From positions 1-24,261 of IMG/VR virus record IMGVR_UViG_3300046786_000770: a stretch of DNA of 24,261 nucleotides; one strand, 5' to 3'. The stretch's first letter is position 1, and the number at the start of each line of letters is the position of its first letter. Below, in pieces: positions 3,343-24,261 of this stretch. The notes below the pieces were generated by a model, which saw only the letters and a program-made list of their open reading frames with translations, did not search any database and was not told the origin of the DNA. Position numbers and translations under genes: made by a program. The stretch is from a virus. Its lineage: Duplodnaviria; Caudoviricetes.

Positions 3343-4236
3343 ATGTCAGTGTCAACTAATCAAAATCGTTTTAGTAGCCTTGGGGATGGAGTGAATGATA
3401 CATTCAACTTCCCTTCCTATTTCAAATCTCAGCCCGACATTTTGGTGTTGGTCACTGATGACACAGGTATCGTGACCACAAAAGTTCTCGATGTTGATTA
3501 CAGTATCAACGGAACTCCGGTTGCAGGATTTGGTTACAAAAACGGAGCAGATATTGTTTTTGCGGTGGCTCCTTTGGCTACTGACACTGTAATTCTGATC
3601 AATGACCCGACTCCACTTCAGAACACTGTTCTCGCAGCATATTCAGCTTATCCACCACAAAAGATTGAATCAACACTCGATTCAATCATCCTAATCTTTC
3701 AAAGAGTGTACGACATGATGTTTTCTCGTACCGTTGTGATGAAAGATGGAATGGTAGACCCTTTCGACCCAACTTTACCGATTGATCTTGCGACCGTTGA
3801 TAATCAAGGAAAAGTGATGATCACTGACCCTGCGGGCAGTAACACTTTTGTAATGGGTCCGAGTGCTGATGATATTGAAAACGCTCAACAATATGCAGCG
3901 GACGCGGCAGCTTCGGCGGCAGCGGCTCTCGCAAGTGAGAACGTGGCAGTAGCGGCAGCGGTTCAAGCTACAGAAAGCGCGGCAGACGTTGCGGCATACA
4001 TCAGTGATTTTAACGAAGTGGATACTTCAGGCGGCGACGTGCCGGTTATACTTCCGCTTGCAATAGATGGAAAAAGAATCATATCTTACATAAATAAACT
4101 CGGTTCTGCGTTTAACATCGACGTTACACCTTCAGGTGGAGACACCATTCACGGTGACCCGAGCGACTCGTTAGGCACAGGCGAAGTTGGACAATATTGG
4201 AGCAATGGTACTGATACTTGGTACAGAATAAATTAA
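3343..4236 (+). CDS. Short tail fibre/adaptor with T7 gp17-like N-terminal tail-attachment domain
   Basis: The N-terminus GDGVNDTFNFP...DILVLV...LDVDYSING is typical of T7-type fibre anchors. An Ala-rich helical stalk follows (AADAAASAAAALASE), then a ~70-aa DTSGG...SNGT.W domain. No signal peptide. Confidence 0.75.
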   Translation: MSVSTNQNRFSSLGDGVNDTFNFPSYFKSQPDILVLVTDDTGIVTTKVLDVDYSINGTPVAGFGYKNGADIVFAVAPLATDTVILINDPTPLQNTVLAAYSAYPPQKIESTLDSIILIFQRVYDMMFSRTVVMKDGMVDPFDPTLPIDLATVDNQGKVMITDPAGSNTFVMGPSADDIENAQQYAADAAASAAAALASENVAVAAAVQATESAADVAAYISDFNEVDTSGGDVPVILPLAIDGKRIISYINKLGSAFNIDVTPSGGDTIHGDPSDSLGTGEVGQYWSNGTDTWYRIN

Positions 4237-4245
4237 GGAGAAACG

Positions 4246-5292
4246 ATGAGAAATTTAATTTTAGCAGTTTTGTTTTTGGTAGGGATGGATGCACAGGCAA
4301 GGGTAGCTTACGATGCGTACCGCATGGGCGCGACAGGTAACTTACCAACTTGGGGTAAGATTGATCTTGCCAACGGTACAACCGGAAGTGCGCCACTGGC
4401 TACTGATTTAGCAGGCGGACTTGGCGGACAAGTTTGCTACCAAAATGCAGTAAACGACACTGTGTTTTTGGCTAACGGAACTGCCGGACAAATTTTACAA
4501 AGTAACGGAACGACTCTCGCACCAAGTTGGGTGAGTGCTTCGGGCGGTACTGTAACTGCGGTATCGGTTGCTTCGGCTAACGGGTTTGCGGGTTCATCAA
4601 GTGGCGGAGCTACCCCCGCCCTAACTCTTTCAACTTCAATCACTGGTATGCTAAAAGGTAACGGAACTGCAATGAGTGCCGCTACAGCGGGAACTGATTA
4701 CAGTGATGGTACTTCTGCATTAGCTACTGGTATTTTGAAATCGACTACTACTACAGGTGCGTTAACGATTGCAGTAGCGGGTGACTTTCCAACTCTCAAT
4801 CAAGACACGACAGGAAAATCAGCTAGTACAGATGCATTAAAATCCGCTACTACTACAATCAACGTATCAAGTGCTACGGCTCCAACATCGGGTCAGGTTC
4901 TTACCGCTACTTCAGGAACCGCAGCGACTTGGCAAACGCCTTCAGGTGGCGGAGGAACCGCAAGTGTTAAATTTACTCTGGAAGGCGCAACCGTTCCTTA
5001 CACTTCTATTAACGGCCCTCACTATCAAACAACTACTCAGTCACTCACTACTGTAAATATTTCTGCACTTGATTCAGGTACTTCGGGTTCGACTACTGTC
5101 CAAGTGAATCAATACCGTTCAGGTTCTTTGCTAAGTTCTGCTACCGCTTCATTGTCTGCATCGTCTGGAAATCCAAGTGGTTCCGCAGCGGCATTAAGTG
5201 GTACTTTAAGTTTGTTGGCTGGTGACATTATTACCGTGGATGTTAACAGTGTTGCAGGTGGAAACCCATCTGAATTATCGGTAGAATATTAA
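4246..5292 (+). CDS. Tail-fibre-like Gly/Ser/Thr-rich protein with predicted Sec signal peptide
   Basis: SD AAGGAG. N-terminus MRNLILAVLFLVGMDAQA (basic, hydrophobic, AxA). Fibre-type motifs GTAGQILQSNGT..APSW, GTVTAVSV and GQVLTATSGTAATWQ. Confidence 0.7.
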   Translation: MRNLILAVLFLVGMDAQARVAYDAYRMGATGNLPTWGKIDLANGTTGSAPLATDLAGGLGGQVCYQNAVNDTVFLANGTAGQILQSNGTTLAPSWVSASGGTVTAVSVASANGFAGSSSGGATPALTLSTSITGMLKGNGTAMSAATAGTDYSDGTSALATGILKSTTTTGALTIAVAGDFPTLNQDTTGKSASTDALKSATTTINVSSATAPTSGQVLTATSGTAATWQTPSGGGGTASVKFTLEGATVPYTSINGPHYQTTTQSLTTVNISALDSGTSGSTTVQVNQYRSGSLLSSATASLSASSGNPSGSAAALSGTLSLLAGDIITVDVNSVAGGNPSELSVEY

Positions 5293-5313
5293 TAACGAAG
5301 GAGAAAGAAAAGT

Positions 5314-5841
5314 ATGAGAAATTTAATTAGTTTAGTTTTAGTTTTGTTTGCCACGAATGTTTTTGCGGCTACTGGTTCAGGAAACGTAAGTAACGTGTTA
5401 ACTCTTGGAGGGGTTTCTAACTTAGGAAATCTAGTAATACCAGAGGCAAACTCACAAGGGTATTTTGCTTTGTACACCTCTGGAGTAGCAATTACTTCTG
5501 GTAACGTAGCTCCACTATATAAGAATGGGGTTGCATACCAAGTTACTGCGGCTAAAACTTTTAAGACTACAAAAATTTGTGTAGCAAGTGGTGCAGCTCC
5601 CGTATTTAACTATCAGCTAATAACAGCAACAGCTTCTTTTGCAGCTAATGCGACTACGGCATCATTAACTGGTCCAGTCTATCAAAGTGGAGCGGCGGGA
5701 GGATATTCTCTCATGAACGCTGCTGCTGCGGGAGTATATACTTGTTTTGATGCTACTTTCGATATGGCAGCGTCAACATACGCTGGCTACCAATCAAACA
5801 GCACAAATAATTCTGTGATCGTTATAGGTAAAGAAATCTAA
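5314..5841 (+). CDS. Predicted exported beta-rich protein, function unknown
   Basis: SD AAGGAG. Signal peptide MRNLISLVLVLFATNVFA. 175 aa with two Cys. Confidence 0.7.
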   Translation: MRNLISLVLVLFATNVFAATGSGNVSNVLTLGGVSNLGNLVIPEANSQGYFALYTSGVAITSGNVAPLYKNGVAYQVTAAKTFKTTKICVASGAAPVFNYQLITATASFAANATTASLTGPVYQSGAAGGYSLMNAAAAGVYTCFDATFDMAASTYAGYQSNSTNNSVIVIGKEI

Positions 5842-5842
5842 T

Positions 5843-6007
5843 ATGAAAGTATTATTTTTGGCACTTTTAATATCGGTATCGGCGTGGGCACAAACTCCCA
5901 CGCCTTCACCTATACCCGCGCCTACTCCAAAACCTAAATCTGAGTTTTGTGGATTGAAATTTAGTGGGGCTGCGTACAAAGCGTGGGTGGCAGCTAACTG
6001 TAGATAG
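5843..6007 (+). CDS. Small exported Pro-rich peptide, 54 aa (not in ORF track)
   Basis: Hand translation: MKVLFLALLISVSAWAQTPTPSPIPAPTPKPKSEFCGLKFSGAAYKAWVAANCR. It starts 1 nt after the upstream stop and fills the gap up to the next SD. Confidence 0.75.
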   Translation: MKVLFLALLISVSAWAQTPTPSPIPAPTPKPKSEFCGLKFSGAAYKAWVAANCR

Positions 6008-6016
6008 GAGATCGTC

Positions 6017-6238
6017 ATGCAAGATGCCGTAACATTTTCGCAGTTTGTTAACTGGGTATTTTACGGTTTACTTGCTTACGTGGCTGTGGACATAATGAGA
6101 TCAATCAGAGAAGTGAAAGACAGCATTGCTACTCTGAATACACAAGTTGCTGTCGTAATTGCTCAAACTGAATCGCACAAAGAAGTCTTAGATAGACACG
6201 ATGAGCGCATTCACAGTTTAGAGGTAAAGGAAAAATAG
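6017..6238 (+). CDS. Single-TM plus coiled-coil membrane protein (holin/XhlA-like)
   Basis: SD AGGAG. TM segment FVNWVFYGLLAYVAV, followed by a heptad-like region ending HDERIHSLE. Confidence 0.55.
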   Translation: MQDAVTFSQFVNWVFYGLLAYVAVDIMRSIREVKDSIATLNTQVAVVIAQTESHKEVLDRHDERIHSLEVKEK

Positions 6239-6242
6239 TAGT

Positions 6243-6644
6243 ATGAAAAATTTTATCATGAAAAACCAACTGTCAATTTTCTTCGCATTCGCAGCCCTTA
6301 TCATCGGAGTGTTCTTGGGCCAAAACGTTTTTGCTCAAACCCCAGACAGCATTCCGACTGCGAGTGAATACCTTCAACTTTTTTCATCTTTACAGGGTAT
6401 TGGCGGTTTGAAAGCTGCCGGTATCATCACATTAATCGTGCAAGCGTTAATGTTAATCGTTCGCCAATTTGTTCAGGGTAAGTACAAATTGTTGATCGTG
6501 TCTGCTCTCACCCTAATCGGTGCGGCAGTGAGTGCGTATATCAGTGGTGGTAATTTTGCATCTGTGATGACTAACTCCGTTGTTTTAACTTCGGTGCAAG
6601 TTTTGGTTAACCAAATCTTCACTCAAATTAAAAAACCGGCGTAA
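6243..6644 (+). CDS. Multi-TM membrane protein with N-terminal signal peptide (holin-like)
   Basis: Signal-like N-terminus ending NVFA|Q, then 2-3 hydrophobic helices and a basic C-terminus (IKKPA). Alternative start at 6258. Confidence 0.55.
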   Translation: MKNFIMKNQLSIFFAFAALIIGVFLGQNVFAQTPDSIPTASEYLQLFSSLQGIGGLKAAGIITLIVQALMLIVRQFVQGKYKLLIVSALTLIGAAVSAYISGGNFASVMTNSVVLTSVQVLVNQIFTQIKKPA

Positions 6645-6662
6645 AACTTCACGGACGAATGA

Positions 6663-6692
6663 GGAGAGATCGGATTAAACTCTGATCTCTCC
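6663..6692 (+). promoter_or_regulatory. Intergenic RNA hairpin (12-bp stem, 6-nt loop)
   Basis: GGAGAGATCGGA-TTAAAC-TCTGATCTCTCC with one G:U pair on the plus-strand RNA. No downstream U-tract. Confidence 0.55.
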
Positions 6693-6718
6693 AACAAAAA
6701 GAAAAGGGGAAATACAAA

Positions 6719-7018
6719 ATGGCAGGACAAGGTACAGTATCAATTAAAGCTTATGAAAAACCACTTGGGTATGAACAGATTTTATCTGCAACTCTTGCGG
6801 CCCCTACTCAGTTAAACAAACCGGCTTACACAAAGGTTGCTTACGTTCAAGTCGAAGGCGGTCAAGTTCGTTACCGCGATGACGGCACTAACCCAACGGC
6901 GGCAGTCGGGATGCTTCTCGTAGATGGAGCATTTTTAGAATATGCGGGAGATTTATCCGCTCTAACTTTTCTCACCGAATCAGGGGCACCAAAACTTAAC
7001 GTATCTTATTACGAATAG
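6719..7018 (+). CDS. Small conserved phage protein, probably virion-associated
   Basis: The motif VRYRDDGTNPTAAVGM resembles small beta-rich proteins seen in phage structural regions. No signal peptide. Confidence 0.6.
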   Translation: MAGQGTVSIKAYEKPLGYEQILSATLAAPTQLNKPAYTKVAYVQVEGGQVRYRDDGTNPTAAVGMLLVDGAFLEYAGDLSALTFLTESGAPKLNVSYYE

Positions 7019-7027
7019 GAGATTAAA

Positions 7028-9898
7028 ATGAAAAATACCCTCACTAAACTTTTACTTTTGGCGGGGGTGTTTTTCGCATCCTCTTCTTACGCTCAACGAA
7101 TTAACGTTCCGGGCGGCGCTCCAAACTATAAACCGAGCGTCACCAATCCTGCGGCACTTCCGGCTACCGGAAACGCTACGGGTGATGCCCGCGTTTCAAA
7201 GTCTAACGCTTCCATTTACATTTGGGATGGAGCCGCTTGGCAAGGAACCGCAGGTGGCGGAGCCGCTGCATGGGGTGCTATTATTGGTACACTCTCAAAC
7301 CAAACGGATTTACAAACCGCGCTCGGCCTAAAAGAAAATACAATCACTGCTACAACTTCTGCGGACTACTACCGTGGGGATAAAACTTTTCAACCGTTTG
7401 ATGCTGCCGCGCAAGCTGCATCTATCTCTCAAGTAATCACTAATGGTGTGACGACTAAAGCGCCAAGTGAAGACGCAGTGTTTGACGGTTTGGCACTAAA
7501 AGAACCTACCATCACTGCCACAACTTCTGCGGACTATTATCGCGGAGACAAAACATTTCAACCGTTTAATGCCGCTGCTCAGTCTGCGGTAGTAACTCAA
7601 GTGATCACCAATGGGGTGACTGCTACGGCTCCGAGTGAAGACGCGGTTTTTGACGGTTTGGCGTTGAAGCAATCCACTTCAGAAAAAGATGCAAACAACG
7701 GTTACGCAGGCTTAGATGCAGGCGGAAAAATTGCAATCTCTGCACTTCCTAACACTGTGATGACTTTTGAAGGGCAGTGGAACGCAAACACCAATACTCC
7801 GGCACTTGCTGACGGTGTCGGTAATGCGGGTGATGTTTGGCGCGCTAACGTTGCAGGAACTACCAACTTTGGTTCAGGCGCAATCGCTTTTAACTTAGGT
7901 GACTGGGCTGTTTATAACGGAACGATTTGGGAGTACGCTGCCAATTCAAATTTAGTTATGTCAGTGAACGGGCAACAAGGTGTTGTGGTTTTAGATACTG
8001 ATGATATTGCCGAGGGTACTAATCTTTACTTCACTGATGCGCGCGCAATCGCTGCTCCAATCACAGGGTTTACTTCCGGTGCGGGAGCATTAGCAGCTAC
8101 AGATACTATCTTGCAAGCGATCAATAAACTTGACGGTAACATTGGTGCGGCCACTACTGGTAACGTCTACGGAATGGCGGGCTTCAATGCTTCCGGCGTT
8201 TTGTACTCTATCCCTAACTCATACCACACTGACTACAATGGTTTTTATACTACGATTCAAATACCAGTAGCGGGTGATGTTACTTATTTAAACATGGGTT
8301 CTGCGGCGGGAACGGGATTAGGTTCTGTGAACGGTATTCTTTTAAATAACCAAATCGAGAGTACAACAAACTTAACTTTAATTGATCTTAATAACTCCGC
8401 GCCAGTTGGGGATGATTTTCAGGGTTCAAGACTATTCAACACCGGAAACGTATTTGATGGTCTAACTATGCAATCGGTTGGTAACTCTGGTACTTTCGGC
8501 GGTCAGCTTCGTTTGATGGAAGCCAACAATTCAGGAACCGGCGCGGGCGGTATTTTATACAATATCTCAAACTCTGGAGCTATGTCCGGCCCTTTCACTG
8601 GGTTGCAAGTTAGCGATTCAGGAAATCATACGGCTAACAGTCAGGCGTTCAACATCAATAAAACGGGTGACACTACCGGCGATGCCAACGGTATTGGATT
8701 GAACATGGACGGAGACACAACTGGAAATGTTGTTGCGTTTACTTTAGGAGCAAACGCAAACTTAGTTGGTGGAAATTTCATGGGTCAAAACATTTACAGT
8801 AGTGATGTTGTGACCGGAAGTTCTACCATGGTGAGTATTTCCGAAAACGGAAGTTCTACAAATGAAACTGGTTTGAACATAAGTTTAGCCGGTACAGCAA
8901 GCACAAGCGTTGTGGGCGCAAACATTGACGTAAGCGGTGCTACTTTTGCCGGTCAGAAAACAGCTTTGCAAGTTCAGGGCGGTATTTTTAACTCAAGTAG
9001 CTCGGTTGACACTGGGGATTACACACCCGGCTTTTTCTTCAACAACAATAGTCTTGGTGGGCAATTGCAAATTGATTCAGGTTCACCGCTTTTAGCTACC
9101 GCAGGCTTTGGTAACAATCTTGGTATCGTAGTCAACTTTGACGATGACGTTACCGCAGACAACACTATTGGCGCAGGAAACAGTATCGGTTACTCGATCA
9201 ACGGTTTTGTGAACCAAATCACAGGTGCTACAGGTAAAACTTTTGATACCATCAACTATATGTTTGCAGGCGGTTCAAATCCTTCCGGTGATGGAACGAT
9301 TGAGAACTTAAACTTTTTCCGAGCAGCGGGGTTGTTAAACGCGGGTGGAAACTTAACTGCGACAAACCTCAGAGCGTTTTATGTTGACCCTGCTCTAGAC
9401 GGCTCAGTTACCGCTACCAACAAGTGGGGTTTTATCAATGCTTCTTCTACTTCTGAAAACTGGTTTAAAAAGAACGTAGTAGTTGGCGGTACGACTGGCT
9501 TGGGTGAAGCAGGCGTGGAACTTGATGTTGACGGTGAAGCCCGTATTAGAAGCTTGACTACGGCTGGGTACGTGACAACGGACGCGACAGGGCATTTAAC
9601 TTCTGTGGCTATTCCTGGCACTCCGGTTTCATCTAACATCACTGCCAACACCACTTTGTCTTCGGCTACTCGATACTACTTCTGCGATACTTCAGGCGGT
9701 GCTTTCACAGTTACACTTCCGGCAGCGGCATCTAACGATGGCGTGGCTTTCACAGTGAAGCATACTACTTTTGGTGGCGCAAATGACGTGACGGTTGCAA
9801 CCGGCCAAACTATCGACGGTGAAGCGGGGGATACCTTAACAGCGGGTGAAGGTAAAACTTATATCAGTAACGGTACTGCATGGTTTGTGAGTAACTAA
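7028..9898 (+). CDS. Large tail-fibre/adhesin-like protein with predicted Sec signal peptide
   Basis: SD AGGAG. Signal peptide MKNTLTKLLLLAGVFFASSSYA. Fibre motifs WGAIIGTLSNQTDL, GYAGLDAGGKI, GQWNANTNTP, VMSVNGQQG and TDDIAEGTNLYFT. A Gly/Asn-rich, possibly beta-helical middle and a C-terminal DTSGG domain. Confidence 0.75.
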   Translation: MKNTLTKLLLLAGVFFASSSYAQRINVPGGAPNYKPSVTNPAALPATGNATGDARVSKSNASIYIWDGAAWQGTAGGGAAAWGAIIGTLSNQTDLQTALGLKENTITATTSADYYRGDKTFQPFDAAAQAASISQVITNGVTTKAPSEDAVFDGLALKEPTITATTSADYYRGDKTFQPFNAAAQSAVVTQVITNGVTATAPSEDAVFDGLALKQSTSEKDANNGYAGLDAGGKIAISALPNTVMTFEGQWNANTNTPALADGVGNAGDVWRANVAGTTNFGSGAIAFNLGDWAVYNGTIWEYAANSNLVMSVNGQQGVVVLDTDDIAEGTNLYFTDARAIAAPITGFTSGAGALAATDTILQAINKLDGNIGAATTGNVYGMAGFNASGVLYSIPNSYHTDYNGFYTTIQIPVAGDVTYLNMGSAAGTGLGSVNGILLNNQIESTTNLTLIDLNNSAPVGDDFQGSRLFNTGNVFDGLTMQSVGNSGTFGGQLRLMEANNSGTGAGGILYNISNSGAMSGPFTGLQVSDSGNHTANSQAFNINKTGDTTGDANGIGLNMDGDTTGNVVAFTLGANANLVGGNFMGQNIYSSDVVTGSSTMVSISENGSSTNETGLNISLAGTASTSVVGANIDVSGATFAGQKTALQVQGGIFNSSSSVDTGDYTPGFFFNNNSLGGQLQIDSGSPLLATAGFGNNLGIVVNFDDDVTADNTIGAGNSIGYSINGFVNQITGATGKTFDTINYMFAGGSNPSGDGTIENLNFFRAAGLLNAGGNLTATNLRAFYVDPALDGSVTATNKWGFINASSTSENWFKKNVVVGGTTGLGEAGVELDVDGEARIRSLTTAGYVTTDATGHLTSVAIPGTPVSSNITANTTLSSATRYYFCDTSGGAFTVTLPAAASNDGVAFTVKHTTFGGANDVTVATGQTIDGEAGDTLTAGEGKTYISNGTAWFVSN
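7328..7669 (+). repeat. Two copies of a 168-bp (56-aa) in-frame tandem repeat
   Basis: LKE.TITATTSADYYRGDKTFQPF.AAAQ.....QVITNGVT..APSEDAVFDGLA occurs twice, with units starting at 7328 and 7496. Confidence 0.9.
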
Positions 9899-9899
9899 T

Positions 9900-10103
9900 A
9901 TGAAAGACGCATCAGGAATAGCAGCGGCGGTGAGCGCAGTAATTGGTTTGATTTATTTCATCTACGGCAAGGTGAGAGCGTCGCAAGGTGCAACCAAGCA
10001 AGAAAAACTTGATGCGCTTTATTTGGCAATGAGCAAGGCCACAACTGACCAACAAAGGAAAGATTTACAAGATGAGATTAACAAGCTTCTTAATTCTAAG
10101 TAG
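9900..10103 (+). CDS. Putative inner-membrane spanin (Rz-like)
   Basis: N-terminal TM (IAAAVSAVIGLIYFIY) followed by a helical coiled-coil. It overlaps a lipoprotein gene next to the endolysin. Confidence 0.5.
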   Translation: MKDASGIAAAVSAVIGLIYFIYGKVRASQGATKQEKLDALYLAMSKATTDQQRKDLQDEINKLLNSK

Positions 10104-10326
10104 TCTTCTCAGTGGTTGTGCAACGTTTGCAATGGGTAGAAACCGTTGCGACGCTCCCGACTTACCAGCACGTCCAAACGTTGAACGCCACTTTCCAAAC
10201 GAGAATGGTCAGTACATTTGTGATCAAGGTGTTTGCAATGTGAAAAATCAGCAATGTATTACGATCGAAGACGCTAGACTTACTGAACTGTGGATTAACT
10301 CAGTGTTAAAGGGTTGCGGTCAATGA
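10072..10326 (+). CDS. Lipoprotein, putative outer-membrane spanin (Rz1-like)
   Basis: Lipobox LLSG-C16, Pro-rich linker (APDLPARP) and six Cys in total. It overlaps the upstream gene by 32 nt. Confidence 0.6.
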   Translation: MRLTSFLILSSLLSGCATFAMGRNRCDAPDLPARPNVERHFPNENGQYICDQGVCNVKNQQCITIEDARLTELWINSVLKGCGQ

Positions 10327-10718
10327 CCGGCAAACGTCTCATTTTAGCGCGTGATCTCTACCGTGAAGACGGTATTTTTGGTGATCTCATTGCAGAAGAC
10401 GGCGACCTTGATTTATTAACTCTTGAACACTCCTACGGCCTGCTTCCCAAAGTACCAAAAGGTGAATACGTCTGTAAGCGGACGGTCTGGCACAAAAAAG
10501 GCATACCCACGTTTGAAATCACCGGAGTACCTGATGCCACTCGAATCTTATTTCACACAGGAAACAAGGAGCAAGACAGTGAAGGTTGCGTTTTATTAGG
10601 GTTGGCAAGGCTCGAAGGAAACGACGGCGTAATGTTGGTATCATCCAGTAAAGCTGCTCATAAACGTTTTATGGAGCATTTTGAGGGCGTTGATGAGTTT
10701 CCTCTCACAATCCTGTAA
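10323..10718 (+). CDS. DUF5675-type (L,D-peptidase-like) putative endolysin
   Basis: Motifs LTLE..., VPKGEY, GVPDATRILFHTGN and DSEGCVLLG. The ATG at 10323 forms an ATGA overlap with the lipoprotein stop, so it is preferred to the TTG at 10314. Confidence 0.8.
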   Translation: MTGKRLILARDLYREDGIFGDLIAEDGDLDLLTLEHSYGLLPKVPKGEYVCKRTVWHKKGIPTFEITGVPDATRILFHTGNKEQDSEGCVLLGLARLEGNDGVMLVSSSKAAHKRFMEHFEGVDEFPLTIL

Positions 10719-10914: not shown

Positions 10915-10974
10915 TCATTTCTTTTTCCCGCCGCAAGTACAGGGGAACCAAATACAGTTAGGTTCATGGCTCAT
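10915..10974 (-). CDS. Possible 19-aa Cys-rich peptide
   Basis: MSHEPNCIWFPCTCGGKKK, with an ATGA overlap on the peptidase stop codon. Confidence 0.25.
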   Translation of the reverse strand: MSHEPNCIWFPCTCGGKKK

Positions 10975-11525
10975 TGGAAGTACCTCTTGAACCTTTCAAA
11001 GTAAGACATTTTGCCAGTACGTTTCGCGTAATCCTCGCAAGCGTAACCAAGTGCATAGTTCACACTAAACTCGCGGTTGAACGTGTATTGGTACTCATGA
11101 TCAAAACCGAGTTTATGTAGGTATTCGTGCATGATGTTTCCCGCGATCTCTTCTGCCGACCAATTGCGGAAAAACTTTGCATAAATCCACTGCGTAGGGG
11201 TGGTTGGGTAAGTGTAACCAATTACGTTTCTAGTCCATGAATTATCAAGCTCGATTTGAATATCAGCTTCGCTATCAGTTTCAGGAGTTAAAGTTTCACT
11301 GCCTGATAAAATTATAGATAGGACTTCTTGGTTGGTGAATGTGGTGTAATGAAATCTTGTGTGTTTATTGTCGTCGTAATCGGTGTACGAGTAGTTCAAA
11401 ACAATCTTTTCAAATTCTTCTGAGTTGATAAACTCTTCAACATATTTAACTGCTTTGTTCAATTTGATAAGATCATTAGTAAAAAAGTTACTTGATTTTA
11501 AATTAGTTCTGAATATTTTTCTCAT
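10971..11525 (-). CDS. Zinc metallopeptidase (HExxHxxGxxH zincin)
   Basis: AGNIMHEYLHKLGFDH motif, preceded by VIGYTYP. Confidence 0.75.
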   Translation of the reverse strand: MRKIFRTNLKSSNFFTNDLIKLNKAVKYVEEFINSEEFEKIVLNYSYTDYDDNKHTRFHYTTFTNQEVLSIILSGSETLTPETDSEADIQIELDNSWTRNVIGYTYPTTPTQWIYAKFFRNWSAEEIAGNIMHEYLHKLGFDHEYQYTFNREFSVNYALGYACEDYAKRTGKMSYFERFKRYFQ

Positions 11526-22922: not shown

Positions 22923-23398
22923 CCTAAAATATCTTTCGCGCTCTCATCGGCTTCGATCTCTTTTTCCAAGTCATAACACGCAATTAAAAAATCTTTCATT
23001 TTCCGCGATAGTTTTTTAGATAGTGTGGCTTCAAGTGAAAAATGATTAAACCTCATCGGCGGGATTGCAAAAATATCGGTTTTGTTTCGTTCTTCGTTAA
23101 TGTGTGATGCCACTTTTCCCAGTCCGTAGCTTTTTAATTTTGCCAATGTTTCAGGGTATATTGTTTTAATCACCCCTACTCTGTTTTTGCCCCTATTGTC
23201 TTTTCTGAGATAGGGTTTTAAATTAACACCGTGTTTTTTCTCAATAACGTCAATGATCGGGGAGTATTTAAAAGGGATTGCCTGAACGTTATACATTTGA
23301 AAATTTGCGGGTGGTACTTCTACACCTTCCATTTTAAACATTAGTTTCAAAGCGGCAAGCCCGCCCAGTGGTTTCATGGTTTCTTTTAGTGTTTTCAT
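22919..23398 (-). CDS. Hypothetical basic protein
   Basis: 159 aa, ATGA-coupled on both sides. Confidence 0.65.
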   Translation of the reverse strand: MKTLKETMKPLGGLAALKLMFKMEGVEVPPANFQMYNVQAIPFKYSPIIDVIEKKHGVNLKPYLRKDNRGKNRVGVIKTIYPETLAKLKSYGLGKVASHINEERNKTDIFAIPPMRFNHFSLEATLSKKLSRKMKDFLIACYDLEKEIEADESAKDILG

Positions 23399-24261
23399 TT
23401 GAAAAACTCCTCAAATTTTTTACTGCCGTATTGGTCTTTTGTCATTTCGATGGCTTTTGCAATGCTTAGGGCTTTAGGTAATTTTTTACCTTCACAAAAG
23501 TTTTTAGTCCCTAAGCTACACGCGCCGGTTATCACTCGGTATGCCTCTATTATATCGTCAATTGGTTTAACATCATTTTTCTTCCACTTTCTAAAGTGTG
23601 AAGTGTCGCGGTTTGATATTTTATATCTTAAATCACCTATCGCATCTTTAATTGTTTTTCCGTGGGAGAATTTATCACCTTTTTTGACGACGTAAGACAT
23701 TGTATGTTTAAGAAAGTTTTCTTCAACTTCAAAAACTTCAATATCTTTTATTTTCTTTTGGCTAATCAACTTTTTAGTAAAACCATCGGCATGAACATAA
23801 CCTTGTTTTAACCATTCTTTAAAACTTCGCTCAATTTTTTCAGGCGTTTTAATAACGGTGGCAGTTTTTGATTTCCTACCTACTTTACCTGAAAACCCTC
23901 TGAAAGATGCAACCGAATAATCTAGTAATTTTTTAAGTATTACAGAAGATACCAAAACTGTAATCATTGAGAAATCATGCGCCACAACGCTTGAATTTTC
24001 CCGCGCCACAACGCTTGAATTTTCCCGCGCCTCAACGCTTGAATTTTCCCGCGCCTCAACGCTTGAATTTTCCCACGCCACAACGCTTGAATTTTCCCAC
24101 GCCTCAACGCTTGAATTTTTCAGCGCCACAACGCTTGAATTTTCCCGCGCCTCAACGCTTGAATTTCCCCGCGCCTCAACGCTTGAATTTTCCCACGCCA
24201 CAACGCTTGAATTTTCCCACGCCACAACGCTTGAATTTTCCCACGCCACAACGCTTGAATT
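23395..24261 (-). CDS. Octapeptide-repeat (probable beta-solenoid) protein with conserved phage C-terminal domain, 5' partial
   Basis: Frame is open to the window end. A(W/R)ENSSV(V/E) repeats, then a C-terminus SHGKTIKDA..DL.YK...YRVITGAC..GT..F...QYG...F..FF. Confidence 0.8.
   Translation of the reverse strand, partial: NSSVVAWENSSVVAWENSSVVAWENSSVEARGNSSVEARENSSVVALKNSSVEAWENSSVVAWENSSVEARENSSVEARENSSVVARENSSVVAHDFSMITVLVSSVILKKLLDYSVASFRGFSGKVGRKSKTATVIKTPEKIERSFKEWLKQGYVHADGFTKKLISQKKIKDIEVFEVEENFLKHTMSYVVKKGDKFSHGKTIKDAIGDLRYKISNRDTSHFRKWKKNDVKPIDDIIEAYRVITGACSLGTKNFCEGKKLPKALSIAKAIEMTKDQYGSKKFEEFFK
23981..24261. repeat. 24-bp coding tandem repeat, at least 11.7 copies, running off the window
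   Basis: Unit GCC(A/T)CAACGCTTGAATTTTCCC(A/G)C, head-to-tail with no spacers. Confidence 0.97.

Follow-up and report, generated by a model that had tools for sequence, protein, structure and literature searches.

Here we describe a cluster of late genes of an uncultured short-tailed phage, in the virus record IMGVR_UViG_3300046786_000770 (24.3 kb, completeness about 57%; its whole stretch of 24,261 nucleotides is called the window below), in which a tail fibre appears to be split into a leaderless anchored stub (3343..4236) and a separate fibre, A (4246..5292), that begins with an export leader. We consider it quite probable that the fibres of this cluster undergo export and are added to the particle when the cell lyses. 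In the mechanism proposed, a trimer of the stub would bind the tail in the cytoplasm, as its homology suggests, and present its terminal domain, XD1. Fibre A, the adjoining protein B (5314..5841), a 38-aa peptide (5843..6007) and a long fibre of 956 aa (7028..9898) are predicted to pass through the inner membrane and, having shed their leaders, to form trimers in the periplasm. The two pools would meet upon opening of the inner membrane by the holin, either ahead of the opening of the outer membrane by the spanins or together with it. A complex model predicts that mature A rests with its first 18 residues on the distal face of the trimeric XD1. The long fibre may form a second appendage, perhaps mounted on a 99-aa jelly-roll protein, and its own XD1 may possibly be a second socket for A. 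Storage of fibres in the periplasm until lysis was one of two options offered by an earlier, sequence-only reading of the window, and it gains support from the anchored stub, the plug that begins at the predicted cleavage site, the complex model and the recurrence of the pair in a myovirus. All features of the window named here are on the plus strand unless stated otherwise.

Leaders were called with a rule of our own, based on a basic n-region, an uncharged hydrophobic core and small residues at positions -3 and -1. The genes at 4246, 5314, 5843 and 7028 were positive, with predicted cut sites after residues 18, 18, 16 and 22, respectively. The sequence-only reading had assigned Sec leaders to five of seven consecutive genes, the fifth at 6243, and had described the group as fibre-like. 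All five N-termini were found where it had placed them, and the leader assignment stood for the four genes listed above. The product of 6243..6644 (133 aa), however, passed only if started at Met6 and keeps two further transmembrane helices behind its leader or first helix, as judged by hydropathy, and we therefore regard it as a membrane protein. Its gene lies among lysis-type genes, and its kinship with a leaderless membrane protein of the phage locus L122 was not significant (E 0.09). As for the fibre-like character, it applies to 4246 and 7028 but not to the other three genes.

The rule was positive for 26 of 1370 distinct open reading frames (ORFs) of at least 100 aa in other phage loci, and given this background the probability of four or more positives among seven genes is about 4e-6. 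Within the three larger leader-bearing proteins, no internal window was positive (0/278, 0/105 and 0/886). Since the rule missed leaders that were clear by eye (the fibre of locus L133, protein B of the related genome G001, gp085 of Cellulophaga phage phi18:3 and a 505-aa protein of the related genome G004), the leader counts given here are lower bounds. Shuffled versions of the leaders were still positive in 0.7-3% of trials, as they would be if the leaders were chance hydrophobic N-termini or miscalled starts. We find such an origin hardly credible, given the clustering, the leaders on all 13 top long-fibre hits (self included) and the strong AGGAG ribosome sites that precede the starts at 4246, 5314 and 7028. 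In-frame downstream starts had no ribosome sites, except for one GTG at codon 28 of 5314, and the positions of the sites at the leader starts speak against true starts downstream of the leaders. From their sequences, A, B, the 38-aa peptide and the long fibre are predicted substrates of Sec and signal peptidase I (SPase I).

Fibre A (348 aa) comprises an 18-aa leader (4246..4299), a segment of 24 residues from the predicted mature N-terminus that we call the docking plug (4300..4371), a mosaic shaft and a variable C-terminal domain. The leader was present in 7/7 orthologues compared, just as leaders were present in the 12 closest homologues of the long fibre (12/12), so the leaders are conserved in related phages. 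The orthologue leaders were 29-53% identical to that of the window and the plugs 54-92%. Conservation began exactly at the predicted +1 residue and ran for about 24 residues, beyond which the shafts were mosaic; R1, M9, G13, L15, W18, G19 and D22 of the plug were invariant in all seven aligned orthologues. Among the 120 hits listed for A, ten had leaders by the rule; the four that aligned from the first residue all carried one, and the rest matched only the shaft, which resembles many leaderless phage fibres. The C-terminal domain of the G001 and G002 orthologues matched PHROG tail fibre 9017 (E 5e-9 to 3e-8). A profile of the plug, run against a local sequence set, matched only its 8 source sequences and one near-copy, from which it follows only that this set holds no leaderless or internal plug. 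Every plug found sits behind a leader, and of the three adjacent genes for stub, A and B only the stub is without one. Alternatively, the leaders could remain uncleaved before docking and serve as an inner-membrane tether or timing lock, with particles collecting their fibres at the membrane. Anchoring of this kind could be achieved by a hydrophobic core on its own, but small residues at -3 and -1 were kept in all 7 orthologues compared, and the start of conservation exactly at +1, a residue that is itself in the modelled interface, makes such a tether very unlikely.

The stub (297 aa) lies directly upstream of A. It consists of a podovirus virion anchor (residues 1-165), a short helix and a terminal XD1-type domain (residues 217-297; nucleotides ~3991-4233). 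Residues 1-135 gave PHROG tail and fibre matches (best E 8e-7), and tblastn matched the anchor to tail fibres of Pelagibacter and epsilon15-like phages. The last ~80 residues are predicted to fold like T4 gp9/gp10 (Foldseek best E 0.014), whereas the predicted structure was poor outside residues 220-297 (mean predicted local distance difference test, pLDDT, 47). The XD1 model superposed on XD1 of CBA120 TSP4 with Z 8.4 (root-mean-square deviation 2.7, 82 aligned residues) and on a KP1 gp9-size chain with Z 8.2, and the XD1 profile matched residues 54-121 of T4 gp10 (E 4e-8), an aligned range that corresponds to XD1. The structural matches thus fall on XD1 of TSP4, gp9 and gp10; XD2 and XD3 were absent from the matches listed but may nonetheless be related to the domain.

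We modelled the complex of three copies of stub residues 200-297 with three copies of residues 1-77 of mature A. The model scored 0.86 (runs 0.81-0.89) and the best of three controls 0.00; the mark for this score was reached by 116/157 solved and 2/215 mismatched pairs, counts that are only roughly valid for a job of this kind. The runs agreed in at least 94% of contacts, with partner pLDDT of at least 94. In the modelled contacts, plug residues 1-2, 13-15 and 17-18 face stub residues 253, 269-272, 275-276, 278-281 and 295. The interface includes invariant residues on both sides, namely R1, G13, L15 and W18 of the plug and I269, H270, G271, D275, G280 and E281 of the stub. Residue +1 of the plug pairs with E281 and the C-terminus of the stub lies inside the interface, an arrangement that would follow if a fibre had been split at this point and the plug were its continuation. 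The plug had no sequence relatives in the PDB at E up to 1; likeness to solved complexes of the gp10 family may contribute to the score. Within these bounds, the model supports binding of A to the stub.

The predicted docking resembles that of branched receptor-binding proteins (RBPs) such as gp37-gp38 of Klebsiella phage KP32, CBA120 TSP4 and T4 gp10-gp12, where the anchored protein likewise carries a gp10-like domain. In the accessible part of the KP32 report, the second trimeric fibre docks by a short conserved N-terminal peptide of 29 aa (PMC13352976). The stub, in contrast, has no further enzymatic domain, and its matching domain is XD1 rather than XD2 or XD3. Both partners in the branched systems are cytoplasmic and leaderless, whereas here an export leader precedes the docking peptide and the two partners would come from separate compartments. 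The docking logic is a variant of the branched fibre systems; no description of the compartment was met in the literature searched.

The same pair occurs in phages of different build. The complete genome G001 (42.6 kb) has a different replication module and gene order and its long fibre among the head genes, yet it carries the same stub-A-B run. The complete genome G004 (57.8 kb) is that of a contractile-tailed myovirus, the fibre slot of which encodes a stub of 162 aa that joins a myovirus anchor (PHROG 2282) to the same XD1; behind it comes an orthologue of A, again with this plug. Two anchors combined with one socket and one plug are what a functional pair predicts. In both complete genomes, the stub was the only leaderless fibre gene recognised (by eye, in the ORF lists). 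By comparison, Ralstonia phage DU_RP_II has the same anchor, which epsilon15-like podovirus fibres also share, in the same gene slot and a related DNA polymerase (41% identity), but its anchor belongs to an unsplit leaderless fibre of 838 aa, where the stub of the window stops at 297; it also has an integrase beside its lysis genes and the window has none.

The long fibre has a 22-aa leader, a fibre N-domain, a shaft, a beta-rich body and a terminal XD1 (residues 874-956), and it matched a PHROG minor tail protein (E 2e-33). Among its 120 listed homologues, leaders were carried by 13/13 at ranks 1-13 (self included), 7/11 at ranks 14-24, 5/36 at ranks 25-60 and 5/60 at ranks 61-120. These leaders share character rather than sequence. 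The mature N-termini fell into three classes, and in each of them some hits (5/17, 9/15 and 6/12, respectively) were leaderless phage proteins that have the same domain close to Met1, which argues that ordinary phage fibre ends acquired leaders. Only 3 of 91 distinct IMG/VR fibre homologues were rule-positive. Given this distribution, export appears to be a property of particular phage lineages laid on ordinary fibre modules. The terminal XD1 is homologous to that of the stub (E 7e-7). When the XD1 domains of 16 leader-bearing long fibres were aligned, the equivalents of D275 and G280 were kept in 16/16 and an acidic residue at 281 in 11/16, while leaderless XD1 domains outside stubs mostly differed at these positions, by eye. 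The terminal XD1 of the long fibre may thus be a second socket, or it may owe its likeness to recombination.

Export could also have the purpose of display. The second option of the sequence-only reading was that the fibres are shown on the surface of the infected host as adhesins like the MAT proteins of Bdellovibrio, in which case the stub alone would be the receptor-binding fibre of the virion. In its favour, residues ~90-420 of the long fibre share shaft modules with five large secreted fibres of cellular type, two of them with the S74 chaperone, and a terminal XD1 could bind a receptor: repeats of StcE and CpaA share its fold, and the StcE module binds mucin. MAT adhesins, as far as the accessible text of PMC10769870 goes, are secreted mosaic fibres built from phage-fibre modules, with S74 in 13/21 members and an NS74 subgroup without it. 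They share the signal peptide with the fibres of the window. Behind the leader, however, they carry a beta-rich domain that is conserved and ~130 aa long, whereas the phage fibres begin with phage fibre N-domains; comparison with residues 21-180 of the five cellular-type homologues, taken as MAT proxies, gave no match (E 0.03 over 18 aa at best). Lipobox and transmembrane anchor are also missing from A, B and the long fibre, and S74 (PF13884) had no match in the window. The genes lie inside the late operon, and neither a tyrosine integrase nor a large serine recombinase was found in any of the four records (0/4), two of which are complete. The plug, moreover, travels with the stub across phage morphotypes. 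The adhesin option is weakened by these results and we regard it as unlikely.

Another use of the exported proteins would keep them off the particle altogether, as soluble receptor-binding decoys freed at lysis or as periplasmic actors in superinfection block or lysis timing. The genes do lie among lysis-type genes (6017, 6243 and the spanins), and the 38-aa peptide with its two Cys would fit a periplasmic lysis regulator. This account leaves unexplained the conserved plug that fits an anchored stub and the absence of another recognised fibre gene in the complete relatives, and it seems distinctly unlikely to us. The region at 9900..10718 encodes a pair of spanins, inner and outer, together with a DUF5675 protein. 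The Rz-like PHROG match of the inner spanin (E 7e-4) and the protein with a lipobox at Cys16 indicate a host with an outer membrane and a periplasm, and the DUF5675 protein was recognised by PF18925 (E 8e-18).

The pIII protein of filamentous phages is a receptor-binding protein with a cleaved Sec leader; it stays anchored in the membrane and joins the particle while a non-lytic phage is being extruded. The fibres of the window, in contrast, are without a membrane anchor, and their phage is a lytic tailed one. In Cellulophaga phage phi18:3, the proteins gp085-087 have leader-like starts and are annotated as virion proteins from tandem mass spectrometry (MS/MS); two of these three were rule-positive, compared with 0/9 of the other MS/MS-annotated proteins in that stretch. 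We found no description of exported tailed-phage fibres in the literature searched, which mostly did not include subscription papers, and the accessible part of PMC13288928 mentions neither a signal peptide nor the periplasm.

Several points weigh against export of the fibres and their assembly at lysis. Export and cleavage were called by our own sequence rule, and the window is 57% complete. The socket role of XD1 comes from one model. In the accessible text of PMC8825819, XD1 is a spacer without axial binding of trimeric partners, XD2 and XD3 being the known sockets; the reason given there is that linkers leave both faces of XD1. That argument does not apply to a terminal XD1 such as that of the stub, which is the last domain and has its distal face free, and the same text calls the function of XD1 not fully understood. 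XD1 also ends many fibres, leaderless ones among them, and so may be a receptor-binding tip. The phage G006 has a leader-bearing fibre, beside which lies a leaderless fibre-like gene of 477 aa, and gave no XD1 match, so the stub-plus-plug pattern is not uniform. The phi18:3 proteins had neither detectable homology with those of the window nor an XD1 match, and their virion status is a record annotation that does not mention leaders, for which co-purification is a possible source. Structural comparisons of the 99-aa neighbour did not point to a partner for the long fibre.

Two reasons for export were considered and rejected. Folding with disulfides does not account for it, as the two fibres of the window have one Cys each; Cys content was 2.7 per 1000 aa in leader-bearing and 1.4 in leaderless homologues, and the A orthologue of G004 has 12 Cys. 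Glycosylation was rejected because sequons (N-x-S/T) showed no excess in this phage, with 7 in A against 4.6 expected and 21 in the long fibre against 17.2 expected. The D-S/T motif was at chance level in the exported-type proteins of the window, with a mild excess in pooled leader-bearing homologues (1.26 vs 0.76). The single Cys of these fibres and the lack of sequon excess also count against export.

Textbook accounts assume that tailed-phage particles are assembled wholly in the cytoplasm, and a route through two compartments would differ from this. If it exists, receptor-binding proteins would be kept away from assembling particles and gain access to periplasmic folding, with the last step of maturation at lysis. 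Genes with signal peptides in late operons, often read as host-modifying cargo, could then be virion parts. The predicted pair is small and testable, a trimer of the 80-aa XD1 and a peptide of 24 residues for which contact positions are predicted, and it suggests a socket role for XD1. A further step is possible but doubtful: particles with bare sockets would be armed at lysis, the plug and XD1 being a standard shared by podoviruses and myoviruses and the long fibre offering a second socket, so that modules could be mounted at two distances and swapped between unrelated co-infecting phages without genetic exchange.

The remaining proteins of the cluster are small. Protein B (175 aa, 157 aa mature) is an exported-type beta protein with two Cys, the predicted structure of which was nearest to models of phage hypothetical proteins (template modelling score ~0.5). 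In the relatives, its slot holds a different leader-bearing Gly-rich protein, and from its position B is likely to be the tip of fibre A. The exported-type peptide of 38 aa (mature) is kept with its leader and two Cys in G001 and G002; a lysis regulator or a fibre accessory are candidate roles. A 51-aa protein with one transmembrane helix and four Cys precedes the two-Cys peptide at L006:8677-8832 and in the matching G001 gene; it is present in G001 and G002, and the window is without it. The gene at 6017..6238 encodes a leaderless 73-aa protein with one hydrophobic stretch, probably holin-like from its sequence, with weak library matches only.

The leaderless 99-aa protein (6719..7018) is predicted to be a single jelly-roll (pLDDT 89). 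Its best structural match was the PM2 spike P1 (Z 8.2), within 1 of cupins, and it had no Foldseek matches below E 0.001 and no specific structural match. It is a candidate for a particle-side base of the long fibre. It belongs to a large viral family, and 24/150 of its relatives were leader-bearing by the rule, so other phages may export the small jelly-roll. The one wide gap between genes in this cluster harbours an RNA hairpin of 12 bp (6663..6692; -20.5 kcal/mol), with z -4.6 and none of 200 shuffles equally good. It lies in the middle of the operon, with an A-rich, not U-rich, tract directly 3', and its role may be to stabilise the transcript, or tune it, before the long-fibre genes begin. 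Scans for promoters and terminators gave results at the level of chance.

Elsewhere in the window, the plus strand carries an internal-virion-type LPD38 protein besides the fibre cluster, spanins and DUF5675 gene, and the minus strand encodes a primase, DNA polymerase A, an ssDNA-binding protein, a nuclease and a helicase. The closest cultured relatives of the polymerase are those of Ralstonia phages of ~42 kb, at the 41% identity mentioned above. Neither Pfam nor NCBIfam assigned A, B or the long fibre to a named family. Relatives of the window were confirmed in 0/97 and 0/599 stretches of two metagenome scans, and a genome-contig scan gave five fragments, all unrelated. The minus-strand ORF at 10971-11525 encodes a 184-aa protein with an HExxH zinc-protease motif, without matches in cultured phages, and occupies the position of the integrase in DU_RP_II. 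Another minus-strand ORF (23395-24249; PHROG 15773) starts with a tandem array of 8-aa repeats of the AWENSSVV type, about eleven in number.

Leader-bearing fibres were also seen in other settings. MW202898 offers a parallel to the split fibre of the window, in that a 305-aa stub with a different end is followed by a leader-bearing fibre of 906 aa. The long-tailed phage at L133:8429-15264 has three consecutive leader-like genes, encoding a 1484-aa fibre, a 334-aa protein and a 456-aa LamG protein, and in the unrelated phages at L122:5125-9854 and L134:9647-13006 leader-bearing fibres stand behind small leaderless genes. G004 (L192) has a second leader-bearing cluster on its reverse strand (~29114-32859), between terminase and portal, where an exported-type protein of 148 aa, which is nearly only XD1 and a Gly-rich tip, is followed by two small leaderless genes.

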